Shown here: positions 1 to 12,357 of the stretch, in pieces
Position numbering within the stretch: the first letter of the stretch is position 1
Layout of the letters: every line of letters begins with the position of its first letter
Source: an archaeon
Lineage (GTDB): Archaea > Asgardarchaeota > Thorarchaeia > Thorarchaeales > Thorarchaeaceae
Direction of reading: 5' to 3'
Assembly: GCA_024275415.1 (NCBI GenBank)
Contig: JAJRZD010000031.1
Location: 1-32,000, forward strand
Length of the DNA stretch: 32,000 nt
Translations under genes and position numbers: made by a program
The notes under the pieces: generated by a model
Told to the model about the DNA's origin: nothing
What the model saw: only the letters and a program-made list of their open reading frames with translations
The model's database searches: none

Positions 1-1302
1 AATCAGGAGTACCAATATGACTTTTCCATCTACAACACAAACTGGAATGGTTTGAGTGAGTTCAGGACAGATATCGAACAAAGTGGGTATCGTGTACAGA
101 CAATACAATCCTCTATGAGCGTTATCAGTAGGTATCGCGGGAATGCGACCCTTGTCATCATGGGGCCAGTTCGCGATTTCACATTTGATGCGACATTGAC
201 CATCTTCCAACACCTTGCGCAAGGCGGCGGAGTCATTATCGCCGATGATTTCGGTACCACGAATACATCCTTTACTCTGTTGAACGAGTATTTGTTCAAT
301 CTTACTGCACCCGACTCCCCCTATTTACAATACATAGACGGATTCCTTTCATTCACAAAGGGAATAGTTATGGATCTCGACTCCTATTATGAAAGTCCCC
401 GTCTGCCAATAATACGGGATTTCAACCCACATCCATTATTTGCAGGAGTCACATCAATCACCCTGAATAATGCATCTGCCATCACTCCGACCTGCGTTCT
501 TGGAGCAACTGGCATCGCTTGGACCACTAACCGTGCATGGAGTGAGCACAATGTCAGCGACCCCAATCCAACCCCCAACCCCGAAGAAGGTGAATATGCA
601 GGTCGCCTCCCAGTGATTGGCGTACTTGATGATAGCTATGGCATCCCAATTGAGGGAAGACTAGTCGCCATCTCTGATCCGAGCATCTTCATAAATGAGA
701 TGTTAACCACATTCGATGGGAACCGGAGATTCGGGCAGAATCTCATAGACTGGATAACTGGCGGTAATAGGGACATCCCTATCATATTCAGTGAACAGCT
801 ACTTGCAACACCGCCCCTCAGCGCAGAGTTCTTTTTCGGAGGCTACATGTCCAGAATGTTGTGGGCCAGCACCAATTTCTTCCTCGCACCCATTTACCCG
901 CTGATGACAGTTATTGGGATCAAAAAGTACCTTCCAGACCTGAAAAAGCCCGAGGTCAAAAGTGTATCCGAGGTCTTCATGCGCCGGGGTCAGACCTATT
1001 TCAGCGAACGGATGACATACTATCGCACGGAGGGCAATTATGCGCGAGTCGTGAAGATGATATATCGCAAATTACGCAGAGGACTGCGGAAGAAATACCA
1101 GTGGTCTGACTACAAGCCAACCAAGGTATGGGACTTGCTGCGCTACAAGGATCCCTCCATTAAGGAGAGCGATTTTTACAAGACGATCAAACGTATTGAG
1201 GAGATATCATCAAAGCCATTCATGAAGATTAAGGAAGGCGAGATGATGAAACTCTTCTTCTGGATGAAGAACATCCAAGACAAGTTAATAGAATCAAAAT
1301 GA
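1..1302 (+). CDS. DUF4350-like (GATase-like fold) membrane-associated protein, 5'-truncated by the window edge
   Basis: Frame is open from base 1 (NQEYQYDFSIYNTNWNGLSEF, the SxYNxxWNGLS start typical of DUF4350). It has GGxVIIADDF and ISDPSIFINEML motifs, a hydrophobic segment and a basic C-terminal domain, and lies directly upstream of moxR. Confidence 0.7.
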   Translation, partial: NQEYQYDFSIYNTNWNGLSEFRTDIEQSGYRVQTIQSSMSVISRYRGNATLVIMGPVRDFTFDATLTIFQHLAQGGGVIIADDFGTTNTSFTLLNEYLFNLTAPDSPYLQYIDGFLSFTKGIVMDLDSYYESPRLPIIRDFNPHPLFAGVTSITLNNASAITPTCVLGATGIAWTTNRAWSEHNVSDPNPTPNPEEGEYAGRLPVIGVLDDSYGIPIEGRLVAISDPSIFINEMLTTFDGNRRFGQNLIDWITGGNRDIPIIFSEQLLATPPLSAEFFFGGYMSRMLWASTNFFLAPIYPLMTVIGIKKYLPDLKKPEVKSVSEVFMRRGQTYFSERMTYYRTEGNYARVVKMIYRKLRRGLRKKYQWSDYKPTKVWDLLRYKDPSIKESDFYKTIKRIEEISSKPFMKIKEGEMMKLFFWMKNIQDKLIESK

Positions 1303-1317
1303 GGTGGAACAAACGAA

Positions 1318-2304
1318 ATGACATTAGATGCTACGAAAAGCAATACAGGCGACTCGATTCCACTTATGACCATTTCAGAGGTTCATGATCTCACTTCTGA
1401 GATACTACGTGAATGTGGCCGCATAATCGTCGGGAAGATTGATATCATGCGGGACACACTCATTGCGTTCCTATCCAATGGTCATGTGGTACTTGAGGGT
1501 GTACCTGGGTTGGCCAAGACCTACATGGCCCGAACTTTCGCATCGATTCTGGGATGTGCTTTCAAAAGGATACAGCTCACTGTGGATACGCTACCTGCTG
1601 ACCTGTTAGGAAGCAATGTGTTCAACCAGAAAAGCGGCGAGTTCTGGTTCAGAAAGGGCCCTGTGTTCTCCAATCTAGTACTTGCAGATGAGATCAACCG
1701 CTGTCCTCCCAAATCTCAGAGTGCATTGCTCGAGGTCATGGAAGAGCGACAGGTATCGATTGAAGGTGTCACGCGACCATTGCCAAGACCCTTCTTGATT
1801 ATCGCCACTCAAAACCCTGTAGAACAGGAAGGTACCTATCCATTACCCGAGGCACAACTTGACCGTTTCATGTTCAGATTGGTTCTCGATTATCCCACTG
1901 GATCCGAGGAGGCTGAGGTCATCCGACGAAAGCATGTGGGTGAGGCTACCGATCTTAGGACACTTGCAGACCCGACTACCATGATCAGGATGCAGGAAAC
2001 ATGTAAGACTGTCTATTTGGATGAGGACATCATCAACTATATCCGTGACATCATAGTCAAGACCCGAAATGACGCCCAGATACTCCTTGGAGGCTCGCCA
2101 CGAGCATCTTTGGTGCTGATGAATGCATCAAAGACCCGGGCTGCAATGCACGGCCGTGATTATGTTGTGCCTGAGGATATTCGAAAGCTCGTAGTTCAGA
2201 CTTTGAACCATCGACTTGTACTCAAACCTGAAGCCGAGCTTGAAGGTCTCACTGTAGAACGTGTTGTGTCCAAGATTCTCGGAGAGGTTGACTGTCCTAG
2301 ATAA
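1318..2304 (+). CDS. moxR: MoxR-family AAA+ ATPase
   Basis: Walker A GVPGLAKT, RIQLTVDTLPADLLG, Walker B LADEINR, ATQNPVEQEGTYPLPEAQLDRF; SD GAGGTGG upstream. Confidence 0.95.
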   Translation: MTLDATKSNTGDSIPLMTISEVHDLTSEILRECGRIIVGKIDIMRDTLIAFLSNGHVVLEGVPGLAKTYMARTFASILGCAFKRIQLTVDTLPADLLGSNVFNQKSGEFWFRKGPVFSNLVLADEINRCPPKSQSALLEVMEERQVSIEGVTRPLPRPFLIIATQNPVEQEGTYPLPEAQLDRFMFRLVLDYPTGSEEAEVIRRKHVGEATDLRTLADPTTMIRMQETCKTVYLDEDIINYIRDIIVKTRNDAQILLGGSPRASLVLMNASKTRAAMHGRDYVVPEDIRKLVVQTLNHRLVLKPEAELEGLTVERVVSKILGEVDCPR

Positions 2305-2328
2305 GACATAAGATGGAGCCTAACAGAT

Positions 2329-3651
2329 ATGCTTACACACAGAGGATTTGTGGTCGTTTTCGCAGGAGTTCTATTCCTTACCAGCGGTTTCTCATTCTTC
2401 AATTTCTACTTGACACTACTGGGGGTGTATCTCCTTGTAGGTCTGGTAGTAACGTTGCCACTTTTCGCAATGACTGCAAATCTCTCGGGGATTGAAGTTG
2501 ATCGTCAGATTGACAAAGTCAAGGTGTTCTCTGGTGACTTCCTTCGAGTCAAAGTTACCATCAAGAACACCTCACGACGGCATTTTGATTTCATTGAAGT
2601 GCATGACCAATATCCTGAGCTCTGGATTCTTGCTATCGGTGCTAACTTCATCGCTTCAAGGATTGAACCTGGGGGTAGTATCACGTTCTCATATATCCTC
2701 CAAGTGCGGATGCGTGGAAAGTACTATTTGGGTCCTACTGAGGTGATCATGCGTGATAGACTTGGGCTTCATTACTACAAGCGTGTTCTAAAGGAACAGA
2801 CAGAGGTCTTGGTCTACCCGACTTGGAAAGATGTCAGACGTCTGGAGGCATTGGGAAAACAAAGGCAGCTTGGTCTGATGTTTGGTGCACATCGAACGAA
2901 AGTCATTGGCATGGGAACGGATTTTGCTGGGTTCCGCGAGTATCAACCAGGTGACCCATTCCGTAATATCGATTGGAAGACCAGTGCAAAGCGTGGCGAT
3001 CTCGTCGTTAAACAATATGAGATGGAAAAGAACATCCAGATAATCTGCATGGTTGACACAAGTGGTTCCATGGGCAACGGCTATCCGGAGAACACAAAAC
3101 TAGAATATGCGATACGAGCAGCCGTCCTTCTTACCCATATGGGGATCGAACGAAAGGACCTTGTCGGCACTTGCGTCTTCAGCGACATTGTTCATGCATT
3201 TGTTCCACCGTCCCTCAAACCAAATCATATGTATGATGTGTTGGAGGCCCTTGCAATTGCTGAGCCCGTGGGTTGGAGTGACTATGAATCAGCAATATCC
3301 TATGTTACAAGCCAAACCAAAAAGCGAACCTACATCATTTGGCTAACTGACCTTGAAGAATCGCCTGCTCCACTGCTCAATGCGATGAAGAAGGTTGTTG
3401 CAAATGGCCACCGAGCCACTATCATCAGCCCTTTTGGACCTTGGTTCGAGGCACCCGTTGGGCAATTCGGCCCTGTCGAGAAGGTTCTATCGGAGGCTGT
3501 GTCTGAAGAACTCTGGGAAAGAAGGCAGAAGATAACTAGAGCCCTTGCACGATTCGGGATTAATGTAGTGAATGTCGGCCCTGAGGACTTCCTACCATCT
3601 ATCATCCGTCAATATGAAATGGCAAAACAGAGAGGTGTGGCAATGTTTTGA
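2329..3651 (+). CDS. DUF58 protein with N-terminal TM segments and C-terminal vWA domain
   Basis: DFAGFREYQPGDPFRNIDWKTSAK DUF58 signature, MIDAS-like VDTSGSMG, position after moxR. Confidence 0.9.
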   Translation: MLTHRGFVVVFAGVLFLTSGFSFFNFYLTLLGVYLLVGLVVTLPLFAMTANLSGIEVDRQIDKVKVFSGDFLRVKVTIKNTSRRHFDFIEVHDQYPELWILAIGANFIASRIEPGGSITFSYILQVRMRGKYYLGPTEVIMRDRLGLHYYKRVLKEQTEVLVYPTWKDVRRLEALGKQRQLGLMFGAHRTKVIGMGTDFAGFREYQPGDPFRNIDWKTSAKRGDLVVKQYEMEKNIQIICMVDTSGSMGNGYPENTKLEYAIRAAVLLTHMGIERKDLVGTCVFSDIVHAFVPPSLKPNHMYDVLEALAIAEPVGWSDYESAISYVTSQTKKRTYIIWLTDLEESPAPLLNAMKKVVANGHRATIISPFGPWFEAPVGQFGPVEKVLSEAVSEELWERRQKITRALARFGINVVNVGPEDFLPSIIRQYEMAKQRGVAMF

Positions 3652-5057
3652 AGCCCGTTACAGTCATCCTGCAAATTCTCTCGACTATCACATTTGTATT
3701 GATGTGTTGGTATGCCTATACCTCCCTTTCTGGTTACTGGGATTGGAATGCACCATATGTCTTCATAGTCACCGTATTCCGCTTGATTTCCTTGATCCTA
3801 TTCTTTATTGGAACTATGGTTCTTGCCGGATTGATTGCGCCTATTGCAGGAATCGCACCAGGTGAGGCTTTAGTAGGACTATACAATACTCAGCTTCTAC
3901 GGATGTGGTATATGCAACCCTATGGGGTTTCAGGCCCTTTCACCTCGATAGGACAAGTATTTTCCTCCGTAACTAGAAATTTTGGTGACATATTCATCAT
4001 CCTGTCGCAGTATATCTTCACCTTTCTTTATTTTCTCGCGGCCGCCCTTGGAATCGTGTTCTTTCTTCAATCCTTGTTTAGGATGGAACACAAGTTCGTG
4101 GGTGGTGCTTTGATCTCCATCCAGATGATATTCGTGATAGCAGCAGCTAGGGCACTGATATTTCCTGACTTGCCAGTGATTCCAATTCCCGAGTTCACGG
4201 GCGGTGAGATTCCTATCAATTTCGTTGACTTTCTTGTCGAGCGAGCACAGATTATTGCGCTTGTTTCATTCGCCTATTTAGAAACAAGCTATCAGATGAT
4301 TTACAGCTACTCTGTTGGAAAACCAGTTGAAGAGCGTGAAGAAACTCTGAAACGGCAACTCTTGGCTCTCAGACAGGCAACAAGGAAACGGGATGCCATT
4401 GAGAAAGGGGAAAAAATCAGCACGACAGCCATGAGCCGTTCGTCAGGGGCCACCGCTTTCTCGTTCTTGCGAGAAGCAATCGAACGAAGGCTGTTTGGTG
4501 GTGGTGAAGCAATAGAAAGCATGGATGCCATCGCGGATGTTCGACGGCTTCAAATCTTTGTGGACGAACTCCTCGCATCCGATCCTGATGCACGTGATCA
4601 ACTGACCGCTAAAGCAGCAGCTCCCTCATCAGCGTATATCCTGTCTTCCACAATTATCGGTTCTGCAATCCGCTTTATCGGAGTCATGACTATCGCTTTC
4701 CTGTTCATTAATCCCGTATTCTTTGTAGCCATTTTCAATCTGCCCCCAGGTATCGCGAACAGTGTAGAACTCGAACAACCAGAACTCGTGGTCTTCTTTA
4801 TGTTGCCGATACTTCTCGCATTTGTGCTAGTGGCAATGATTATTGGCTGGGCATCATCACGAGAGGTGGAGGAAAAACCAGTCTTGACCAAAGAAGAAAA
4901 AGAGGCCGAAAAAGCACGGAAGGCAGAGCTGAAACGAAGGCGTGCTGCAGCAAGAAAAGCAAGAAAGGAACGGGAAAAGGCGCGTAAGCGTGCGAAGATG
5001 GTTTCCGACTCGGGTGACGAATGGGACAAGGCCCTTGAGGAAACCTACAAGATGTGA
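3648..5057 (+). CDS. Polytopic membrane protein of unknown function with a Lys/Arg/Glu-rich helical C-terminal tail
   Basis: 469-aa ORF with a TTG start overlapping the upstream stop, multiple hydrophobic segments, a soluble middle region and tail EKEAEKARKAELKRRRAAARKARKEREKARKR. Confidence 0.8.
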   Translation: MKPVTVILQILSTITFVLMCWYAYTSLSGYWDWNAPYVFIVTVFRLISLILFFIGTMVLAGLIAPIAGIAPGEALVGLYNTQLLRMWYMQPYGVSGPFTSIGQVFSSVTRNFGDIFIILSQYIFTFLYFLAAALGIVFFLQSLFRMEHKFVGGALISIQMIFVIAAARALIFPDLPVIPIPEFTGGEIPINFVDFLVERAQIIALVSFAYLETSYQMIYSYSVGKPVEEREETLKRQLLALRQATRKRDAIEKGEKISTTAMSRSSGATAFSFLREAIERRLFGGGEAIESMDAIADVRRLQIFVDELLASDPDARDQLTAKAAAPSSAYILSSTIIGSAIRFIGVMTIAFLFINPVFFVAIFNLPPGIANSVELEQPELVVFFMLPILLAFVLVAMIIGWASSREVEEKPVLTKEEKEAEKARKAELKRRRAAARKARKEREKARKRAKMVSDSGDEWDKALEETYKM

Positions 5058-5075
5058 CCAAAGGACGGCAAAACC

Positions 5076-6050
5076 ATGCCCTCTGTAGTAATCTCTCATG
5101 GGGATGTCGATGGGATCACTTCTGGGGCAATTGGATTGTTGAAATTTCCTGGCTCGTCCTTCTATTTCTCTCGCCCCTCGCAGATACACTCCGATCTTAA
5201 TCGCATCGCAAAGGAAAAACCTGACACGGTCAGTATTAGTGACATTGCGGTCAATGAGATGCGGTTTGATGACATTTTGCAGGTATTGGATAGGTTTCCA
5301 GAGAGCACAGAGGTCTATTGGACCGACCATCATCCTCTTACACGCAAACAAAGGGGAAAGCTGGGCAAGCGTGTCAATCTTGTCCATGAAATTGGCCCAT
5401 GTGCTGCCGAACTCATGTACCGCCGTTTCAGTGACGATTTACCGGAACATGGTCTCCGACTTGCACTATACGGCGCGATTGCCGACTATTGCGACAATAC
5501 ACCATTTACCAATCAGCAATTCGATAACTTTGACAAACGGACATTGTACCTTGAGGGAGTCCTCCTTGTACAAGCATTGCAGGAAATTGATTACCGGCGA
5601 GAGTCAAAGGATCTTGTGTACGAGCTCACGCTCGGTATCTCACCAAGTGCGATGAACAACATCGTTTCCCTAGCAATGAAAGCGACGAGGATCGAAACTG
5701 AAGTATTTCGTCATGTGCAGACAAATGCCCGAAAGATAGGCCGTATCGGCTATATCCTTGACATGCCAATCAGCGGATATAGAGGAAAATCAGCCAAGTT
5801 CGCAGCCTATGTGACCGATTCCAATATTGGGATTAGTGCAAAGTCCTCAGAGGACGAGGTCGATATGAGCATAAGACGGCGAGCGAGTGCCATCGATTTA
5901 AACAAGGCTCTTGGCTCGATTCTTCCCGGCCTGACGAACGCCCATGGTGGCGGTCATCCCGCGGCAGCCGGTGCTACACTGGACAAGAACGACTTTCCAC
6001 GGTTTCTCCAACAGTTAGCTGAATATACCGAGGCAAACTTCAGACCGTGA
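5076..6050 (+). CDS. DHH/DHHA1-family phosphoesterase
   Basis: SHGDVDG motif I, ISD motif II, TDHH motif III and GGGHPAAAG DHHA1 motif. Confidence 0.9.
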   Translation: MPSVVISHGDVDGITSGAIGLLKFPGSSFYFSRPSQIHSDLNRIAKEKPDTVSISDIAVNEMRFDDILQVLDRFPESTEVYWTDHHPLTRKQRGKLGKRVNLVHEIGPCAAELMYRRFSDDLPEHGLRLALYGAIADYCDNTPFTNQQFDNFDKRTLYLEGVLLVQALQEIDYRRESKDLVYELTLGISPSAMNNIVSLAMKATRIETEVFRHVQTNARKIGRIGYILDMPISGYRGKSAKFAAYVTDSNIGISAKSSEDEVDMSIRRRASAIDLNKALGSILPGLTNAHGGGHPAAAGATLDKNDFPRFLQQLAEYTEANFRP

Positions 6051-8517
6051 ATAGGAGGAACGCATTGTATAGCACCCATATGACTGTCACGATGGCTTCA
6101 CCAGCAACGACCCCGCTGAGTAGTTTTGTCCATTTCTTATATTGTGGAGTTTCTGTCGGATCGCCATCTATCGGCACTGTTCTAGCCTGTCTTCTCAGTC
6201 TATAATCCATGAAACCACCGAATAGCATCGCGATTGTAGTCGCAGGAGGCACTAAGATTCCCACAGCCAAGCTGATTGGGCTGAGTCCCCGTTTGCTAAG
6301 CCCCCTTCCGGCCAGAAAGCCTGCTATCCCAAAAGCAAGCAGGTATGCGAAAGCAAACAAAGGGTGCACATCGGGGAATGCATCGAGTCCTGGGAGTTGA
6401 AATCTACTCAATCCCGTCAGGCTGACCACGAGGAAACCAAAGAGCTGGGCAGCAGGGGCTGGGAATTCAGTCCCTCCAAACCCATAGGTCTTGTATAACA
6501 TGAAAGTGATGAGCGACCCCACAAAAGTTCCTAAAAACACTCCAATGAGAACTCCTTTCATGATGTCCCGTCCACGGACACCTGTCATCGTTCCAAGCTT
6601 GAGATGTACCAGAAGTGTGATTGCAGCATCTTGGAGAGCTCCTAGCATTGCCATGAATGTTGTTATTGCTGAGAAGGTAATACGAAACAACAAGATTGCT
6701 GGGATCGAGATCATGTCTGAGATATATCCGGCAAGCATACCTGTTTCGCTGATGGATTTGGCAGTGAAATAGGCAGAAATCATAGCTATTGGTGACCCAA
6801 AGACGAATAGCAGTAATGGTATTTCTGCCCCAACAAACAGCTGGAGTGCAGAAAACACAAGGGCACCGACGATGATGAATAGCACCATTGACACTGTAGC
6901 AATCCATATCGGCACCTGTCCTCGTTTTGAAGTCATATACCCCCGCGGGTCGCGTACTATGAACTGAATCTCCTCTATTATTCGACTGAAGGAGAATACC
7001 TCCTTCTTGATTTTCAAGACTGTCAATGCCAGTTCCCTGCTATGTGTCCTGTCCTGAGCATTATCTTGTGGAGGTTCTGATTCCTCGGCTATCTCATCCT
7101 TCGTGGAGAAGATATCGCCTGCTATCACCGTCACAAAGATTCCTATCGCCAGATAAAGGATCTCTGGTCTTGTGAGGTGACTCGCGTAGTCCATTGGCGC
7201 TGCACCTTCTAGGATGATCCAAAATAGGACTGAAACGATGCTACCTATTGCCATAGTAAGGACTCGTTTCCAGCCTACAAAGAAACCGATGGCTCCTATC
7301 AATGGCGAGTTCGTAATCCCTATCCAATCTGGGACTGAAGGAACAAATGCGTGAGGCATAGCCGAGAGATTGACCCCTTCAACGACTTCAGCAACCTTTA
7401 TCGCTCCCACATACGAAGCTGAGAGTGCCATTCCCGTGAGTACAGTTACCTTCGATTCTGTGTCAGCCCCTAGAGAGTTAATCGTTTCCGCCTGGGGTCT
7501 TATCTGAGGCCATGGATCCTTCTCAAACCCTTTTCTGAACGGAATCAACAATAGTAAACCGAAGACCGAGCTGATTCCCGTTACAAATGCTATGAATTCG
7601 AATGTTATTATTGATGAAATATCCAGCCATGGCATCTGTGTCGGGCCAAAGATTGCAATTGCTGGGAACGTGATCAAAACGCCCACTGATACCATAGAAG
7701 ATGTATTCGCTATTGCCACAGAGATGGTATTCTCTTGCGGTGTGTATTTTCCGTTCAGGCTAAGCAGGAGGAATCCCAACAGTTCGGCCCCAACAAAATA
7801 GACAATCCCAAGTTTTAGCGCCAAGTATACTCCCAAGAATGTCATGACAACTCCTACGATGAGACCGGTTCCAATGGCTCTCTTGGTCACAGGGAATTTT
7901 GGTTCACTAGTAAGTCCCGCATATATCGCCATCCCTCCTGCCGTCATCACAACGACCTCCTCGAATGGCCCCAACAGGAACGAGAAGAGTACGTAAGCGA
8001 ATATGGACAGTGTGAACAAGCCAATCCCTTTCTTGTCAAGCGGGCCCTGGACAACAGACCCTACCAAGAGTGCTACTTCGATGATAATTGCCACCATGAC
8101 CTCATAGACGGGGCCCCACCTGCTGAAAGCGATTAATGCATACACCAATCCTGCGGAGTACAGGCCTACCAGCAAAAGTCTGGTCGAACTCATCTTCGTT
8201 TTGATTGGGTGGTCGAACACAGGATTTGTACCATCACCAGCCAATGCCACAAAGATTGCGAAGCCATCACAGGCAGCAATAACATAAAATGAGAACACCT
8301 GTAGAATGCCCGAAATAACTGCGTATGACACTATCACAATGATGGACACAATCAAGTTCTTCCGATTCACGGTCAAGTTATTTATTGATCCGACAAGAAG
8401 GAATCCGAATACTAGGAGTGCACCAACCATACCGAAATCGATGATGCCCTTGGACATGTTCAATAGCACAAAGAACAGACCTGCCGAATACATCAGTACC
8501 AGTATCACACGAGTCAT
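6040..8517 (-). CDS. OPT-family oligopeptide transporter with a duplicated N-terminal membrane module
   Basis: YLALKLG, ENTISVAIA, FPAI, DLKxG-like HLKLG and PAPAAQ segments typical of OPT; 825 aa and highly hydrophobic. Confidence 0.8.
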   Translation of the reverse strand: MTRVILVLMYSAGLFFVLLNMSKGIIDFGMVGALLVFGFLLVGSINNLTVNRKNLIVSIIVIVSYAVISGILQVFSFYVIAACDGFAIFVALAGDGTNPVFDHPIKTKMSSTRLLLVGLYSAGLVYALIAFSRWGPVYEVMVAIIIEVALLVGSVVQGPLDKKGIGLFTLSIFAYVLFSFLLGPFEEVVVMTAGGMAIYAGLTSEPKFPVTKRAIGTGLIVGVVMTFLGVYLALKLGIVYFVGAELLGFLLLSLNGKYTPQENTISVAIANTSSMVSVGVLITFPAIAIFGPTQMPWLDISSIITFEFIAFVTGISSVFGLLLLIPFRKGFEKDPWPQIRPQAETINSLGADTESKVTVLTGMALSASYVGAIKVAEVVEGVNLSAMPHAFVPSVPDWIGITNSPLIGAIGFFVGWKRVLTMAIGSIVSVLFWIILEGAAPMDYASHLTRPEILYLAIGIFVTVIAGDIFSTKDEIAEESEPPQDNAQDRTHSRELALTVLKIKKEVFSFSRIIEEIQFIVRDPRGYMTSKRGQVPIWIATVSMVLFIIVGALVFSALQLFVGAEIPLLLFVFGSPIAMISAYFTAKSISETGMLAGYISDMISIPAILLFRITFSAITTFMAMLGALQDAAITLLVHLKLGTMTGVRGRDIMKGVLIGVFLGTFVGSLITFMLYKTYGFGGTEFPAPAAQLFGFLVVSLTGLSRFQLPGLDAFPDVHPLFAFAYLLAFGIAGFLAGRGLSKRGLSPISLAVGILVPPATTIAMLFGGFMDYRLRRQARTVPIDGDPTETPQYKKWTKLLSGVVAGEAIVTVIWVLYNAFLLFTV

Positions 8518-8534
8518 ATCATAACGGTTCAGAA

Positions 8535-8618
8535 TGATGAACCTCCGGCAGTGTCCTCACGCAGCAAGATGGCATTCTAATCTAGGATGTCGTTGTGTGA
8601 GGATTGAAGGTTGAATCA
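8535..8618 (+). ncRNA. Candidate structured RNA: long hairpin with G-U pairs and a tandem GA/GA motif
   Basis: CCTCACGCAGC(8555-65) pairs with GTTGTGTGAGG(8592-602) and GGCATTCT(8571-78) pairs with AGGATGTC(8584-91). Full pairing needs four G-U wobbles, which are available only on the + strand. Confidence 0.35.
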
Positions 8619-8634
8619 ACCGACTATTTAGCAC

Positions 8635-8934
8635 TTATGCATTTTTCAGCCTATTCATAACTTGCTCTGAAGTGGCCCCTCTTATCAATAATGTCTTTTC
8701 TCTCGATTTGTGGCCAGCTGCAATGATAACTTCCGATGTAGCAACCCCAATACACTTGGCTATCCGCTTGATTAGCTCTTTGTTGGCCTTTCCTTCTTTT
8801 GCTGGACTTGCCAGATTTATGACTATCTCCTCGTCGGATATCACATGCACCAGACGTTTCCCTTTTACATGTGGGCGAACTGTTATGATAAGGAATGTAC
8901 CCTTTTCTGTTTCCCACGACAATGGTCTGTTCAC
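8635..8934 (-). CDS. DUF167 (YggU/UPF0235) protein
   Basis: VRP...INLASPAKEGKANKELIKRIAK...IIAAGHKSREKTLLI pattern. Confidence 0.9.
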   Translation of the reverse strand: MNRPLSWETEKGTFLIITVRPHVKGKRLVHVISDEEIVINLASPAKEGKANKELIKRIAKCIGVATSEVIIAAGHKSREKTLLIRGATSEQVMNRLKNA

Positions 8935-9049
8935 GATTATGCCATAGCCACAGGTCTTAAAGGTGTTTCATCAAGGATTGTTTTTTAAGCTCTTCCTGTA
9001 GTCTTAGGAAGTAGAAACCGTGTGTTTAGTCACAACGGGGTGAAAACAA

Positions 9050-9430
9050 ATGTCTGATCCTGTTATGGATGCATATACACAAGCATACAACGCCTCAGGT
9101 CAAATGGTCCAAGCCTTTGGTGTCATCAGGGGTGACGGCGCCGTTCTTTGGCAAAGTAATAACTGGTCTCTGGAAGCAGATGCGAAGGGACTTATCAGTG
9201 CAGTGAACAATCGTGCAGCGAGTGTCACTCAAAACCAGGTGAAATATAGCACGATGCGAACAAGTCCAGAAAGCCTTGTCGCCCGGAATGTCCAAGGCAA
9301 CGGAATTCTCATTCTTGCAAAGATCGAGAACGACAAGTGGGTTGTAGCATGGGCTTCACCTGATGCAGCTCCTGACAGCGTCTATGTTGATGTGGACAGA
9401 GCTGCAAAGTCCCTGAAAGGAAGAATCTAG
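9050..9430 (+). CDS. Asgard profilin-like protein (copy 1)
   Basis: 126 aa; AFGVI..G..LWQSNNW, VKYSTMRTSPESLVARNVQGNGILIL pattern matches Asgard profilins as I recall them; SD GGGGTGA. Confidence 0.75.
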   Translation: MSDPVMDAYTQAYNASGQMVQAFGVIRGDGAVLWQSNNWSLEADAKGLISAVNNRAASVTQNQVKYSTMRTSPESLVARNVQGNGILILAKIENDKWVVAWASPDAAPDSVYVDVDRAAKSLKGRI

Positions 9431-9442
9431 TTCATGGTGTGG

Positions 9443-9458
9443 GAGGTTTCTCCCTCCC
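9443..9458 (+). terminator. Short GC hairpin region after profilin 1
   Basis: GGGAGG-TTTCTC-CCTCCC (stem begins at 9441), followed by a pyrimidine-rich tract ending in ATTTT. Confidence 0.35.
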
Positions 9459-9515
9459 CCCTATCCCATTTTAGGTAGAATCAAGAGGTGTGGTCGTACC
9501 CTGTCGATTTCTGAG

Positions 9516-9860
9516 TTGTGGAACCATCTATATTCGTGTAATCCCAAGATTCAAGCGTTTGCCGTGATTGAGAACAAGGCTGTCATATGGCAGACTGAGA
9601 ATTGGAATCTTGTGAAGAGTGTGGATCACCTCTTAGAAGCAGTGTTCCTTTCGAGTGACACAATCGAGCTCTCTAAGGTGCGCTATAAAGTCACCAAGGC
9701 GACTGGAGATACGCTCATCGCATCTTCGCCGGATGGCAATGGGCATATATTGATGGTTCGGACAAAGAAAGGCATCTGGCTTGTGGCTTGGGCGACTTCA
9801 GACTCGATACCAGATCTGACACTCATAGACCTACGATATGCCGCCGCGAAGATGGCATGA
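9516..9860 (+). CDS. Asgard profilin-like protein (copy 2, tandem paralog)
   Basis: Aligns along its length with 9050..9430 (QAFAVI, WQTENW, GNGHIL, WLVAWAT). TTG start at 9516, or possibly in-frame CTG at 9501 behind SD GAGGTG (9485-9490). Confidence 0.7.
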   Translation: MWNHLYSCNPKIQAFAVIENKAVIWQTENWNLVKSVDHLLEAVFLSSDTIELSKVRYKVTKATGDTLIASSPDGNGHILMVRTKKGIWLVAWATSDSIPDLTLIDLRYAAAKMA

Positions 9861-9972
9861 CAGCAACATCCATGTGAACGATTCTCACCGGATGAGCATA
9901 CATCTCATCTCCACTCCACATAAAGAATAAGAGGAGAAGTGTTCAAAGATACTATTGGAGTGGAATTCATTA

Positions 9973-10206
9973 TTGACCGTGACAGCATTCATCCTTCTTA
10001 CCGTCGAAATGGCATCTCAACGGGACATCCTGAATAAAATTCGTGCACTTGATGGGGTTTTAGAGGCTCATCTTATCTTTGGGTCATTCGATATCATAGT
10101 CAAGGCAGAATTTTCAAGTAAGGAGGAGCTAAGTGTATTCGTAATGGACAGGATCAAGTCGATTCCTGGTGTTGGTGACACACAGACCAATATTGCTGCC
10201 GTGTGA
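9973..10206 (+). CDS. Stand-alone Lrp/AsnC ligand-binding (RAM) domain protein
   Basis: TAFILL...GVLEAHLIFGSFDIIVK...IKSIPGVGDTQT pattern; no HTH. Start placed at TTG 9973 (ORF track starts at 9955). Confidence 0.85.
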   Translation: MTVTAFILLTVEMASQRDILNKIRALDGVLEAHLIFGSFDIIVKAEFSSKEELSVFVMDRIKSIPGVGDTQTNIAAV

Positions 10207-10276
10207 TTTTCTACGTCCGTACAAGTTAATCTGGATGAGGCAGTGGTTCTCACCATGATTGCTATCCCAGTCACGC

Positions 10277-11008
10277 TTACTTGAAGATGAGTTCCCTGAT
10301 TCTTCTATGAATATCGATATACTCTTGAGACCCAAAAGCATACGTCTGTAGCAGGAAGTCGTACAGGTCGAGAACCTCCTTGTCTGCGATATCGCTCTTG
10401 ATCTTCTTGACAATCTCTTTTCTAGCAGCAAGTTCGACCTTGAATGCTTCGAGTTTCAACTCGATGAACTTTTTCATCTCTTCTTTTGTCAACTGGATAT
10501 CGAAGTGCTGGAACATCTTCTCGACCATGTATTTGCTCTTCCTGCGCAACATTTTCTCGTCAGCTGCACTCAGCACTCCAGTAACAAGAACGAACCCATC
10601 AGCAGTTCTCCTGTAGTAATCAGTGGTTCGTTTCCCGGTGGTGACAGTCCCAAGCTTGATGACGAATCCAGCCTCGATGAGCTTGGGAAGGTGATGGTAG
10701 ACCTGATTCTTTGTGACACACTCGATATGTTCCAGCTCTTCTGATTTTTTGACAATCTCGACAACAGACATCGCCTTCCGTATTACTTCCTTCTGGCGAA
10801 TGATCGTATCACCGGTTTCAGGATCCTTTGTGGTAGTGGTCTTTGTGTCTTCAATCCCCGTCCTGAGCACCTGAAGAATTGCCAGCCTTACTGTGTCGTC
10901 GAGCTCCTTGGCCCGATTCACATCACCAATGAACTCGACTTCGGGAACCGGTTTTTTTGCCTCCGGAGTCAGCTCGATGCCCTCTAAGGCATCTGTAATG
11001 TCATCCAT
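10277..11008 (-). CDS. ArsR-like winged-helix transcriptional regulator
   Basis: LDDTVRLAILQVL helix, KNQVYHHLPKLIEAGFV recognition helix, wing TGKRTTDYY; SD GGTGA. Confidence 0.85.
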   Translation of the reverse strand: MDDITDALEGIELTPEAKKPVPEVEFIGDVNRAKELDDTVRLAILQVLRTGIEDTKTTTTKDPETGDTIIRQKEVIRKAMSVVEIVKKSEELEHIECVTKNQVYHHLPKLIEAGFVIKLGTVTTGKRTTDYYRRTADGFVLVTGVLSAADEKMLRRKSKYMVEKMFQHFDIQLTKEEMKKFIELKLEAFKVELAARKEIVKKIKSDIADKEVLDLYDFLLQTYAFGSQEYIDIHRRIRELIFK

Positions 11009-11123: not shown

Positions 11124-11146
11124 GCAAATAGTTTGTTATCCAAACC

Positions 11147-11153
11147 TTTATAT
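11147..11153 (+). promoter_or_regulatory. Putative TATA box of the micropeptide operon
   Basis: CAAACC-TTTATAT about 30 nt upstream of SD AGGTGA (11185-11190). Confidence 0.5.
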
Positions 11154-11200
11154 CGTTCTGATACTTAAGAAGCGTACAACCAATAGGTGATTTGACGAAT

Positions 11201-11293
11201 ATGAGAAACACAGACATGAACTCGATACGAAAGAAGAGAACTCATCAGACTACCACTGATGCGATATACCACGCGTATACTTACAGGAGGTAA
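11201..11293 (+). CDS. Micropeptide A, 30 aa: MRNTDMNSIRKKRTHQTTTDAIYHAYTYRR
   Basis: ATG preceded by SD AGGTGA; first of three tandem SD-led small ORFs; C-terminus similar to micropeptide B. Confidence 0.6.
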   Translation: MRNTDMNSIRKKRTHQTTTDAIYHAYTYRR

Positions 11294-11299
11294 GACAGA

Positions 11300-11380
11300 A
11301 TGGCACTTTCAAAGAAACAAGTACCAAAGAAACCGGTCACAACACAAGCTCTCCACTTCGCATTTGTGTACAATAGGTGA
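11300..11380 (+). CDS. Micropeptide B, 26 aa: MALSKKQVPKKPVTTQALHFAFVYNR
   Basis: Strong SD AGGAGGT (11285-11291) 8 nt upstream; C-terminus similar to micropeptide A. Confidence 0.65.
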   Translation: MALSKKQVPKKPVTTQALHFAFVYNR

Positions 11381-11386
11381 TCCCTA

Positions 11387-11503
11387 ATGTCAAATGCATC
11401 AGAAACATCCGAGCGGCGAAACCTGCAAGATTCACCGATCCATGATATGTTGCGCAAGAAGGAAATCGCCCTTGAGGATGTCTTAAATCTAGAGGCGACC
11501 TAG
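11387..11503 (+). CDS. Micropeptide C, 38 aa: MSNASETSERRNLQDSPIHDMLRKKEIALEDVLNLEAT
   Basis: SD AGGTGA (11375-11380) 6 nt upstream; protein-like amphipathic composition; stop codon lies within the terminator hairpin. Confidence 0.65.
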   Translation: MSNASETSERRNLQDSPIHDMLRKKEIALEDVLNLEAT

Positions 11504-11521
11504 TCGCCATTTCTTTTTTTT
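11494..11521 (+). terminator. Hairpin plus T-tract terminator
   Basis: GGCGAC-CTA-GTCGCC followed by ATTTCTTTTTTTT. Confidence 0.7.
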
Positions 11522-11538: not shown

Positions 11539-12357
11539 TTATTTCCGAAACACTATCTGGTAGAATGCATCATTCATTACATAAGACACCTCGATATCTT
11601 TTGCCTTATCCGGAATATGCTCCAATGGTGGCTTTGCTGCGAAGAGACTGTTCGCTTTGATGATTTGTTTCCCTCTCTCAGTTTCTCTCAATGTAGGTGA
11701 TATCCCTTCATCGACGACTACCACAAAACCCCCCTTCCTTGCTATCCTCAACATCTCATTCAATGCTTTTGCTATATCTGAGAATGTGTTGATCCCGCCA
11801 GTATGAAGGACTACATCGAACAAATTGTCGTGATAAGGGATATTGAATACGCTGCCATGAGTGAGGTTGATGGTCAACCCGATGTTCATTGCTTTCCGTT
11901 GGGAAACACGTAGCATCCCCCATGAAACATCTAGTCCGTGAAGGTCAAGGCGCCTCATCTGGTCATCGAACGTTTCTTTCAGTGCAACGAAGTTTGCCGC
12001 AGTTCCTATGCTCACATCCATTATTCGTGATGTGTCCTCGATTGGTACGAACTGGGAGAATCGTTGTCGCTCCTCCAACATGTTGATGCCAAGCCAGTCG
12101 TCATATTGCTTTACCGCCTGGTCGTAGCCCTCCGCCATCTCGTCGTATTCAGCAATCCATTCCTTGTCCTCCTTACTCAGGTCGGGATATAGCAAGCTGG
12201 GAATTCCTTCTTCAATTGGCCATTGGTGTCCTTTTTCACATACTAAGGCCCCATTCTCGACTCCATTGTGATTTTCTGAGAGTTCTGATATCCTTAGCCC
12301 CCTCTTGCATCTAGGACAGCATAAGATATTGATATGTGATGGCATCATGATAATCAA
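11539..12357 (-). CDS. Class I SAM-dependent methyltransferase with N-terminal Trm112-like zinc-ribbon
   Basis: ILCCPRCK...LVCEKGHQWPIEEGIP, motif I variant MDVSIGTA, GLDVSWGML, FDVV, LNEMLRIARKGG. Confidence 0.85.
   Translation of the reverse strand: MIIMMPSHINILCCPRCKRGLRISELSENHNGVENGALVCEKGHQWPIEEGIPSLLYPDLSKEDKEWIAEYDEMAEGYDQAVKQYDDWLGINMLEERQRFSQFVPIEDTSRIMDVSIGTAANFVALKETFDDQMRRLDLHGLDVSWGMLRVSQRKAMNIGLTINLTHGSVFNIPYHDNLFDVVLHTGGINTFSDIAKALNEMLRIARKGGFVVVVDEGISPTLRETERGKQIIKANSLFAAKPPLEHIPDKAKDIEVSYVMNDAFYQIVFRK

Follow-up and report, generated by a model that had tools for sequence, protein, structure and literature searches.

The subject of this report is a set of three very short genes, A, B and C, that lie in tandem in a 32,000-nt stretch of DNA from a Thorarchaeota genome (GenBank assembly GCA_024275415.1, contig JAJRZD010000031.1, positions 1 to 32,000), which is called the window below. 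They occupy the gap ahead of a divergently transcribed regulator gene, and an earlier reading of the sequence alone had described them as a hidden operon of micropeptides in an Asgard archaeon, a host assignment that was borne out. Comparison with related genomes, all of them metagenome-assembled (MAGs), makes it very probable that the three are lineage-restricted coding genes, arranged as one compact unit and served by an operator-plus-TATA element that recurs at a few other loci. The unit appears self-contained and has mostly gone unannotated. The fuller explanation, in which this coding unit forms a regulon with the neighboring regulator and a major facilitator superfamily (MFS) transporter, and in which the peptides modulate protein partners there, is put at roughly 45%.

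The unit reads, in order, operator, TATA box, Shine-Dalgarno sequence (SD) of A, open reading frame (ORF) A, an SD set into its stop region, ORF B, another SD set into a stop region, ORF C and a T-tract. A 17-bp palindrome, the putative operator AGTTTG-N5-CAAACC (11130-11146, assigned to neither strand), abuts the TATA box in the position of a B recognition element (BRE). All further elements lie on the forward strand. The TATA box, TTTATAT (11147-11153), is conserved across genera at this place, directly on the 3' side of the palindrome; the SD of A, AGGTGA (11185-11190), has counterparts at most orthologous loci, where GGTGA is kept 7-10 nt ahead of the A start. ORF A (11201-11293) encodes a basic micropeptide of 30 residues (isoelectric point, pI, 10.5) ending in DAIYHAYTYRR. 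The SD of B, AGGAGG (11285-11290), is made of the two final Arg codons of A, with the TAA stop directly behind them, and ORF B (11300-11380) specifies a basic 26-residue paralog of A (pI 10.6) with the C-terminus TTQALHFAFVYNR. The SD of C, AGGTGA (11375-11380), likewise consists of B's final Arg codon with its TGA stop; ORF C (11387-11503) yields an acidic peptide of 38 residues (pI 4.8) ending in LEDVLNLEAT. A GC-rich 6-bp hairpin overlaps the C stop (11494-11508) and is followed by a T-tract (11510-11521), together a likely terminator.

The TATA box, three SDs, three ORFs, hairpin and T-tract of the sequence-only reading were thus all found where it had placed them. Its terminator is upheld in one half: a T-rich tract after the C stop is general, and the hairpin is shared with the closest relative only, not with other genera. 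The copy in the window also has some peculiarities. Its ORF A is atypical, with 30 residues against the usual 35-residue form, a shorter N-terminus and no MALAKN start. Its three ORFs share one reading frame, each separated from the next by a stop and two codons; this seems to be accidental, since the orthologs do not keep it, and the possibility of a single ORF, expressed by read-through of in-frame stops or by another genetic code, was dismissed for the same reason.

The case for coding function comes from the 1.5 kb upstream of 30 regulator orthologs, drawn from about 16 genera and sharing 45-75% protein identity. A, B and C stand there in the same order and orientation at 26 of the 30 loci, with an additional A-type copy at some. 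Peptides of the A family usually have 33-36 residues, an N-terminal MA-x-x-KN and a C-terminal [ST]-T-x-A-[ILV]-x-[YFH]-A-Y-x-Y-R-R; those of the B family have 26-32 residues and end in I-S-T-x-A-I-x-[YH]-[AS]-Y-x-[YF]-R; those of the C family have 37-41 residues and end in [IL]-[TS]-x-E-E-V-L-x-[WL]-E-A-T. By their sequences A and B are clearly paralogs. Across the conserved C-terminal codons, base entropy at codon positions 1, 2 and 3 is 1.08, 0.85 and 1.51 for A, 1.23, 0.98 and 1.59 for B, and 0.76, 0.53 and 1.48 for C, whose final Thr codon, for example, is AC plus any base across loci. The ratio of nonsynonymous to synonymous change (pN/pS), pooled over same-genus pairs and computed on whole ORFs, is 0.33 for A, 0.29 for B and 0.45 for C. 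A free third position beside fixed first and second positions, together with pN/pS of 0.29-0.45, argues that A, B and C are genuine protein-coding genes under purifying selection.

Other features of the alignments agree with this conclusion. Genera whose regulators share only 45-60% identity have kept the ORF lengths, starts and SDs, and stop-to-stop frames of 35-40 residues recur in hundreds of six-frame hidden Markov model (HMM) matches. The coupling of stop and SD is equally persistent, with 24 of 27 A genes terminating in [A/C]GG-AGG-stop and most B genes in AGG-TAG or AGG-TGA; re-initiation on an SD built into the stop region would also explain why the last residues are Arg-Arg, or Val-Val-Arg in one subfamily. 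The sequence-only reading had held that three SD-led ORFs tiling the space between promoter and terminator were unlikely by chance, and that real genes should recur, with synonymous-biased changes, upstream of regulator homologs; the common order and coupling at 26 of 30 loci, the codon-position entropies and the pN/pS values sustain both points. It is now barely credible that these are chance frames within a conserved non-coding RNA or promoter region. That gene callers mostly skipped the peptides, and that 8 of 10 checked are absent from a large protein collection, carries no weight in its favor, and it is already contradicted by the three-base periodicity of substitution, by pN/pS well below 1, by the preservation of ORF length, start and SD across diverged genera, and by an Rfam search of the window that returned no family. 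Two antisense ORFs (11281-11457 and 11337-11510, reverse strand) were considered and rejected, as the substitution periodicity follows the forward frames.

The distribution of the genes is sharply bounded. Of 85 genomes of the window's Thorarchaeota family, 74 contain matches to a six-frame HMM search based on the A alignment, as against none of 315 genomes sampled from all other Asgard families; an HMM of the C peptide matches 67 of the 85. A degenerate DNA pattern for T-x-A-[hydrophobic]-x-Y-A-Y-x-Y-R-R-stop, searched in one genome from each of 185,579 prokaryotic species, occurs in 40 stretches, all 40 of them in MAGs labelled Thorarchaeota, Promethearchaeota or "uncultured archaeon", and has no match in IMG/VR. 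By these searches, the peptide family is restricted to one Asgard family, of Thorarchaeota.

Within that family the genes are present in several copies. Up to 11 six-frame HMM matches were counted per genome, A and B genes taken together, and most of the 20 extra loci examined hold complete A-B-C cassettes, usually standing alone and terminating at a T-tract. Such dispersed cassettes lie in unrelated contexts, after a PolX gene, before an MFS gene, beside an esterase, beside DsrE/Tsr3/TiaS or beside DsbD, and no regulator adjoins any of those examined. One such cassette, of a form here called "type 2", lies in the same genome as the window, on contig 117 (2173-2507, reverse strand), behind the type-2 palindrome, GTAACAAATTGTGAC. 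Its A' peptide ends in AVGYAFAFVVR and its B' in AICEAYFRR; C' ends in LEDVLALEAT and probably uses a TTG start, and the cassette is located downstream of a gene that, by eye only, looks like an EamA-type transporter. When the copies within two genomes of a single genus are aligned, the shared unit measures about 400 bp and has sharp borders, with unrelated flanks; it begins at the perfect palindrome GTCACAA-A-TTGTGAC about 95 nt ahead of the A start, contains a TATA box and ends a few nucleotides past the C stop. Judged by their flanks, four copies sit at orthologous sites in the two species. Identity between units is nevertheless 84-96% inside a single genome and only 80-82% for positional orthologs, a pattern of concerted evolution by gene conversion.

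These same observations invite the suggestion that the cassette is a selfish or toxin-antidote-like repeat, a promoter-bearing element of about 400 bp that spreads or is homogenised among sites and in which acidic C would neutralise the harm done by basic A and B. The sharp borders, from palindrome to just past the C stop, amid unrelated flanks, the greater identity of paralogs within a genome and the complementary charges (+5 and +5 against -4) would all fit. We nevertheless regard it as improbable: the presence of copies at orthologous sites in two species speaks for age and against active transposition, the repeat units compared show no terminal inverted repeats, target duplications or transposase, IMG/VR holds no matches, and the copy next to the regulator keeps a stable synteny across about 16 genera.

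Attention to the promoters shows which other genes the cassette may be tied to. Regulator-adjacent cassettes, here called "type 1", carry a conserved palindrome, [A/G]GTTTG-N5-CAAACC, directly against the TATA box. With up to 3 mismatches allowed, it is present in all 26 regulator-adjacent intergenic regions, at 66 sites against 2.1 in shuffled sequence, and many genomes have three sites: at the regulator promoter, abutting the peptide TATA box, and between the TATA box and the SD of A. The exact string of operator plus TATA was counted 29 times, in 25 genomes of the family, and not once in a reversed control. At 20 of the 29 sites a regulator-family gene stands on one side and a cassette, or what remains of one, on the other; the remaining 9 lie 200-600 nt upstream of one MFS transporter ortholog. 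As the string is found in only two kinds of place within the family, these sites define a putative three-member regulon of regulator, cassette and MFS transporter. The three share cis-elements and, in part, position. The transporter is a component that the sequence-only reading had missed, as it had the conserved palindrome and the further copies of the cassette.

Two further occurrences of GTTTG-type sites were noted in passing. The one other strict GTTTG-N5-CAAAC site in the window's genome, on contig 18, was not counted, two occurrences being close to the chance expectation; this palindrome, at 6895, lies 8 nt from a TATA-like box and upstream of a 91-codon gene (6576-6851, reverse strand) whose product resembles a histone fold by eye only. 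In one genus, a regulator paralog (41-44% identity) keeps the operator and TATA box, followed by a single diverged 36-residue peptide, MALAKK...YRVSFRR. This is the sole exception among regulator paralogs at 35-44% identity, which were tried as cassette carriers and proved to be without a cassette.

In the window's genome the MFS ortholog is located on contig 116 (3028-4479; Pfam MFS_1, E 4e-16). It is preceded by a type-2 palindrome with promoter and by two decayed small ORFs of 31 and 34 codons; in four other genomes, copies of A or of A and B stand directly upstream of the MFS gene. The contig 116 leader (2737 onward) has a second short ORF that ends in YRYHWRLDE, and both of its ORFs seem to be coupled to the start of the MFS gene. 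The MFS leader of other genomes contains an inverted repeat, GGTCAC and GTGACC around some 25-30 nt with a TATA-like core, which may be a further operator or an RNA element. A type-2 palindrome and TATA box also occur on contig 113 (21255-22600), directly upstream of a gene for a protein of about 420 residues that by eye looks like a bactofilin-like beta-helix repeat protein, so the type-2 operator would serve non-peptide genes as well.

Leaders of this kind raise the question of whether A and B act in cis, with C-termini that stall in the ribosomal exit tunnel at termination, over the next SD, and so tune translation of C or of the MFS gene to a small molecule. Conservation in the last 13 or so codons, the placement of the next SD inside the stop region, and the A/B copies and other short ORFs directly upstream of, or coupled to, the MFS gene are what such arrest peptides would look like. 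The proposal sits poorly with C, which has the same conservation pattern and no downstream gene, and with the fact that most cassettes are alone and end at a T-tract. Nor would a cis-regulator be expected in 5-10 stand-alone copies per genome that undergo gene conversion, or to conserve an N-terminal MALAKN motif and peptide length. On balance, control by arrest is a long shot.

The regulator itself (243 residues; 10277-11008, reverse strand) has orthologs in 34 of 36 genomes of the family. Its matches to Pfam HTH_20, PadR and HTH_5 are all below the cut-offs (17.7 bits against a cut-off of 27 for PadR, PF03551), and NCBIfam gave nothing above cut-off. An AlphaFold2 model (mean predicted local distance difference test, pLDDT, 84.7) has a winged helix and a C-terminal helical domain, and its best fold match in the PDB is 1uly/2cwe, the Pyrococcus horikoshii "ArsR homologue" PH1932 (Foldseek E 2e-8, template-modeling score, TM, 0.48-0.59), with PadR structures in second rank (E 2e-3, TM 0.25-0.35). 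On the predicted model, then, the regulator would be an ArsR-type winged helix by fold only, for which the ArsR-like label of the sequence-only reading is fair. It shares with PH1932 the winged helix-turn-helix and the C-terminal helical domain, and differs from it in sequence (about 20% identity) and in an insertion that forms a long beta-hairpin; PH1932 offers no known function to transfer. Neither the profile scan nor the fold search matched a TPR domain, and no conserved Cys/His cluster stood out among the invariant columns of the regulator alignment, which received no further analysis.

The peptides are small and without recognizable relatives. A and B families each have a median pI of about 10 and a net charge near +5, and the C family a pI of 4.4 and a net charge near -4. 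All three are hydrophilic (mean grand average of hydropathy, GRAVY, -0.82 to -0.93; longest apolar run 8 residues), and hydropathy and apolar-run analysis showed no signal peptide or membrane segment. Conservation is concentrated in the last 10-13 residues, the N-terminal part and the middle being variable, with the N-terminal MALAKN motif of A and the peptide lengths also conserved. The I-x-Y-A-Y-x-Y stretch of A and B places a hydrophobic or aromatic residue at every second position, with Ala or Ser between, a pattern that would suit a beta-strand with one aromatic face. No fold is confidently predicted. The A+B+C trio of one orthologous locus, modelled as a complex with alignments, scored 0.03 with pLDDT 45-51, which speaks neither for nor against binding.

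Databases were similarly unrevealing. Pfam has no family for the window peptides or for 26 A-family or 23 C-family members (best E 0.1), NCBIfam gave no match, a PDB profile search with the peptide family produced one chance match only (E 2.5), and ESM Atlas had no usable match for one C-family peptide, the sole query. A profile search of 1.84 billion protein representatives returned only 22 matches, all of 33-49 residues, and no longer or fused relative. By exact look-up, the window's A, B and C are absent from a collection of 15 billion proteins, in which two of seven orthologous peptides are present, one of them labelled "hypothetical protein". Three motif resemblances were set aside. The eL29-like N-terminus (MA-x-x-KN) matched no ribosomal chain in the PDB profile search, and the spacing of the motif does not fit a PIP-box. 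HbYX tails, which activate the proteasome through Hydrophobic-Tyr-X at the extreme C-terminus, are not universal here: about half of B peptides end in [LFMQK]-Y-R, A ends in Y-R-R, and the window's B ends in V-Y-N-R. A literature search found no publication on Thorarchaeota or Asgard micropeptides. No described family or system was found to fit the peptide genes, although the way they act may yet prove to be a form of small-protein regulation that is already known.

How might such a unit work? A dimeric winged-helix protein, most simply the neighboring regulator, would bind the palindrome over the BRE and TATA box, and at the 5' untranslated site where one is present, and its binding would gate both divergent promoters and the promoter of the MFS transporter. 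One leadered polycistronic mRNA would then carry A, B and C, and ribosomes ending A and B would re-initiate on the SD embedded in the stop region, giving roughly fixed A:B:C ratios. The peptides would act through their C-terminal motifs on a candidate protein partner, either the MFS transporter or the regulator, in a role like that of MntS or SgrT, small proteins that modulate transporters or regulators. Cytosolic effector micro-proteins of a transporter-centered response would be the most likely role for them, which we offer as a tentative possibility only.

Several observations weigh against this explanation. The dispersed copies use a different palindrome, GTCACAA-A-TTGTGAC, with no regulator adjacent, so that the ArsR-like protein cannot be the sole controller. 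The window itself has one recognisable copy of the operator, that abutting the TATA box, and only a degenerate site near the regulator's own promoter. Binding of the regulator to the palindrome is postulated from position and palindromy. As many as 11 six-frame matches per genome, kept alike by gene conversion, would be unusual for a regulatory modulator, and this combination suggests high dosage. The control by the regulator that had been claimed from the window alone is thus retained in part: the link is plausible through the conserved 17-bp palindrome at the peptide TATA box, which recurs in the shared intergenic region, and the cassette is not confined to the regulator locus.

High output could also be read as a sign of export. 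A, B and C would then be pheromone-like or antimicrobial precursors whose C-terminal part is cleaved and exported by the MFS protein, with the regulator responding and uptake possibly through an OPT oligopeptide transporter. The operator common to regulator, peptide genes and MFS transporter accommodates such a scheme, as do the several gene copies and the C-terminal conservation, which is seen in pro-peptides of the RRNPP/Rgg type; the OPT gene (6040-8517), four genes away, is syntenic across the family. We consider export unlikely all the same, since all three peptides are strongly hydrophilic and have no signal sequence, hydrophobic segment or double-glycine leader, the regulon includes no protease, MFS pumps rarely carry peptides, and the regulator is ArsR-like and not a TPR peptide receptor. 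The synteny of the OPT gene extends over more than 15 genes and may be incidental, and its proximity to the operon could be meaningful or not. A complete Asgard circuit of peptide communication or self-regulation, with three co-translated precursors, ArsR-like control, MFS export and possible re-import through OPT, is less probable again, and would, if true, parallel bacterial peptide quorum sensing in function while using unrelated components.

The wider neighborhood (1-11008 in the window) is very stably syntenic across about 16 genera and comprises genes for DUF4350, MoxR, DUF58, an unknown 469-residue protein, DHHA1, OPT, YggU, two tandem profilins, a stand-alone AsnC ligand domain and the regulator, followed by the cassette; the two profilin genes are consistent with an Asgard genome. 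On the other side, convergent with the operon, lies a gene (11539-12357, reverse strand) for a UbiE-like S-adenosylmethionine (SAM) methyltransferase with a fused Trm112-like zinc ribbon (NCBIfam Trm112_arch, 2.6e-13) as its N-terminal part. This methyltransferase adjoins the cassette in 12 of 16 extended loci compared and is absent from all dispersed copies.

Such a neighbor might suggest precursors of a ribosomally synthesized and post-translationally modified peptide (RiPP) or of a cofactor, their Tyr-rich cores being the substrate of enzymes whose genes lie elsewhere, such as a radical-SAM enzyme, a P450 or the convergent methyltransferase. A Tyr/Phe-rich motif conserved at the C-terminus, multiple dispersed precursor-like genes and the methyltransferase at those 12 loci would accord with this, and a RiPP-like precursor was among the functions first proposed for the operon. 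The methyltransferase is missing from several loci as well as from the dispersed cassettes, however, and no modifying enzyme, RiPP recognition element (RRE) protein or peptidase is conserved beside cassettes of either type, whose neighbors are unrelated housekeeping genes. The operator regulon contains no enzyme. Conservation here is C-terminal, with a variable "leader" and a conserved "core", the reverse of most RiPPs, and a classical RiPP layout is therefore not seen; we hold a precursor role to be very improbable, more so than spread as a selfish element or control by arrest.

Eukaryotes have their closest known relatives in the Asgard archaea, and, to our knowledge, no Thorarchaeota are in culture. 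Knowledge of Thorarchaeota biology comes almost wholly from gene annotation, which mostly passes over genes of this size. The cassette amounts to a nearly universal gene family of the lineage, under purifying selection and kept uniform between copies. Its parts are defined: three synthesisable peptides, a 17-bp operator, one candidate regulator and one candidate transporter. If the peptides are signals or modulators of a transporter or regulator, the set would form the first micropeptide regulon to be defined in Asgard archaea. More generally, comparing gaps that hold less than 100 codons across MAGs can recover real genes.

Comparison with known systems places the cassette beside several and within none. 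RRNPP, Rgg-SHP and ComRS systems of Gram-positive bacteria pair a TPR receptor with a precursor that has a hydrophobic secretion segment; the cassette resembles them in having a peptide gene divergent from its regulator and a conserved C-terminus, and departs from them in its ArsR/PH1932-like winged helix in place of a TPR receptor and in precursors with no hydrophobic secretion segment. The psm-alpha genes of Staphylococcus aureus and the leaderless bacteriocins garvicin KS (GakABC) and aureocin A70 encode amphipathic or hydrophobic helices that are exported by ABC systems. Common to these and the cassette are tandem paralogous micro-ORFs of 20-35 codons with their own SDs, no signal peptide, a dedicated regulator and a transporter link, whereas A, B and C are strongly hydrophilic, the third is acidic, and none has the amphipathic or hydrophobic helix. 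Leader-peptide attenuation of the MFS efflux genes cmlA and fexA, and the arrest peptide TnaC, provide a parallel, in that an MFS gene is preceded by short ORFs whose C-terminal codons are conserved and the next SD adjoins the stop; the cassette differs in mostly having no downstream gene and in its several stand-alone copies.

A further likeness is to small proteins that modulate transporters or regulators, among them SgrT acting on PtsG and sP36 of Methanosarcina mazei acting on AmtB, and to MntR-MntS-MntP of Escherichia coli, in which a transcription factor, a hydrophilic micro-protein of about 40 residues and a membrane transporter belong to one regulon. The cassette shares this combination of regulator, hydrophilic micro-protein and transporter, and differs from the MntS type in having no sequence relation to it, in its three coupled peptides in place of one, in its several copies per genome, in its archaeal host, and in that binding to the transporter is a proposal in its case.

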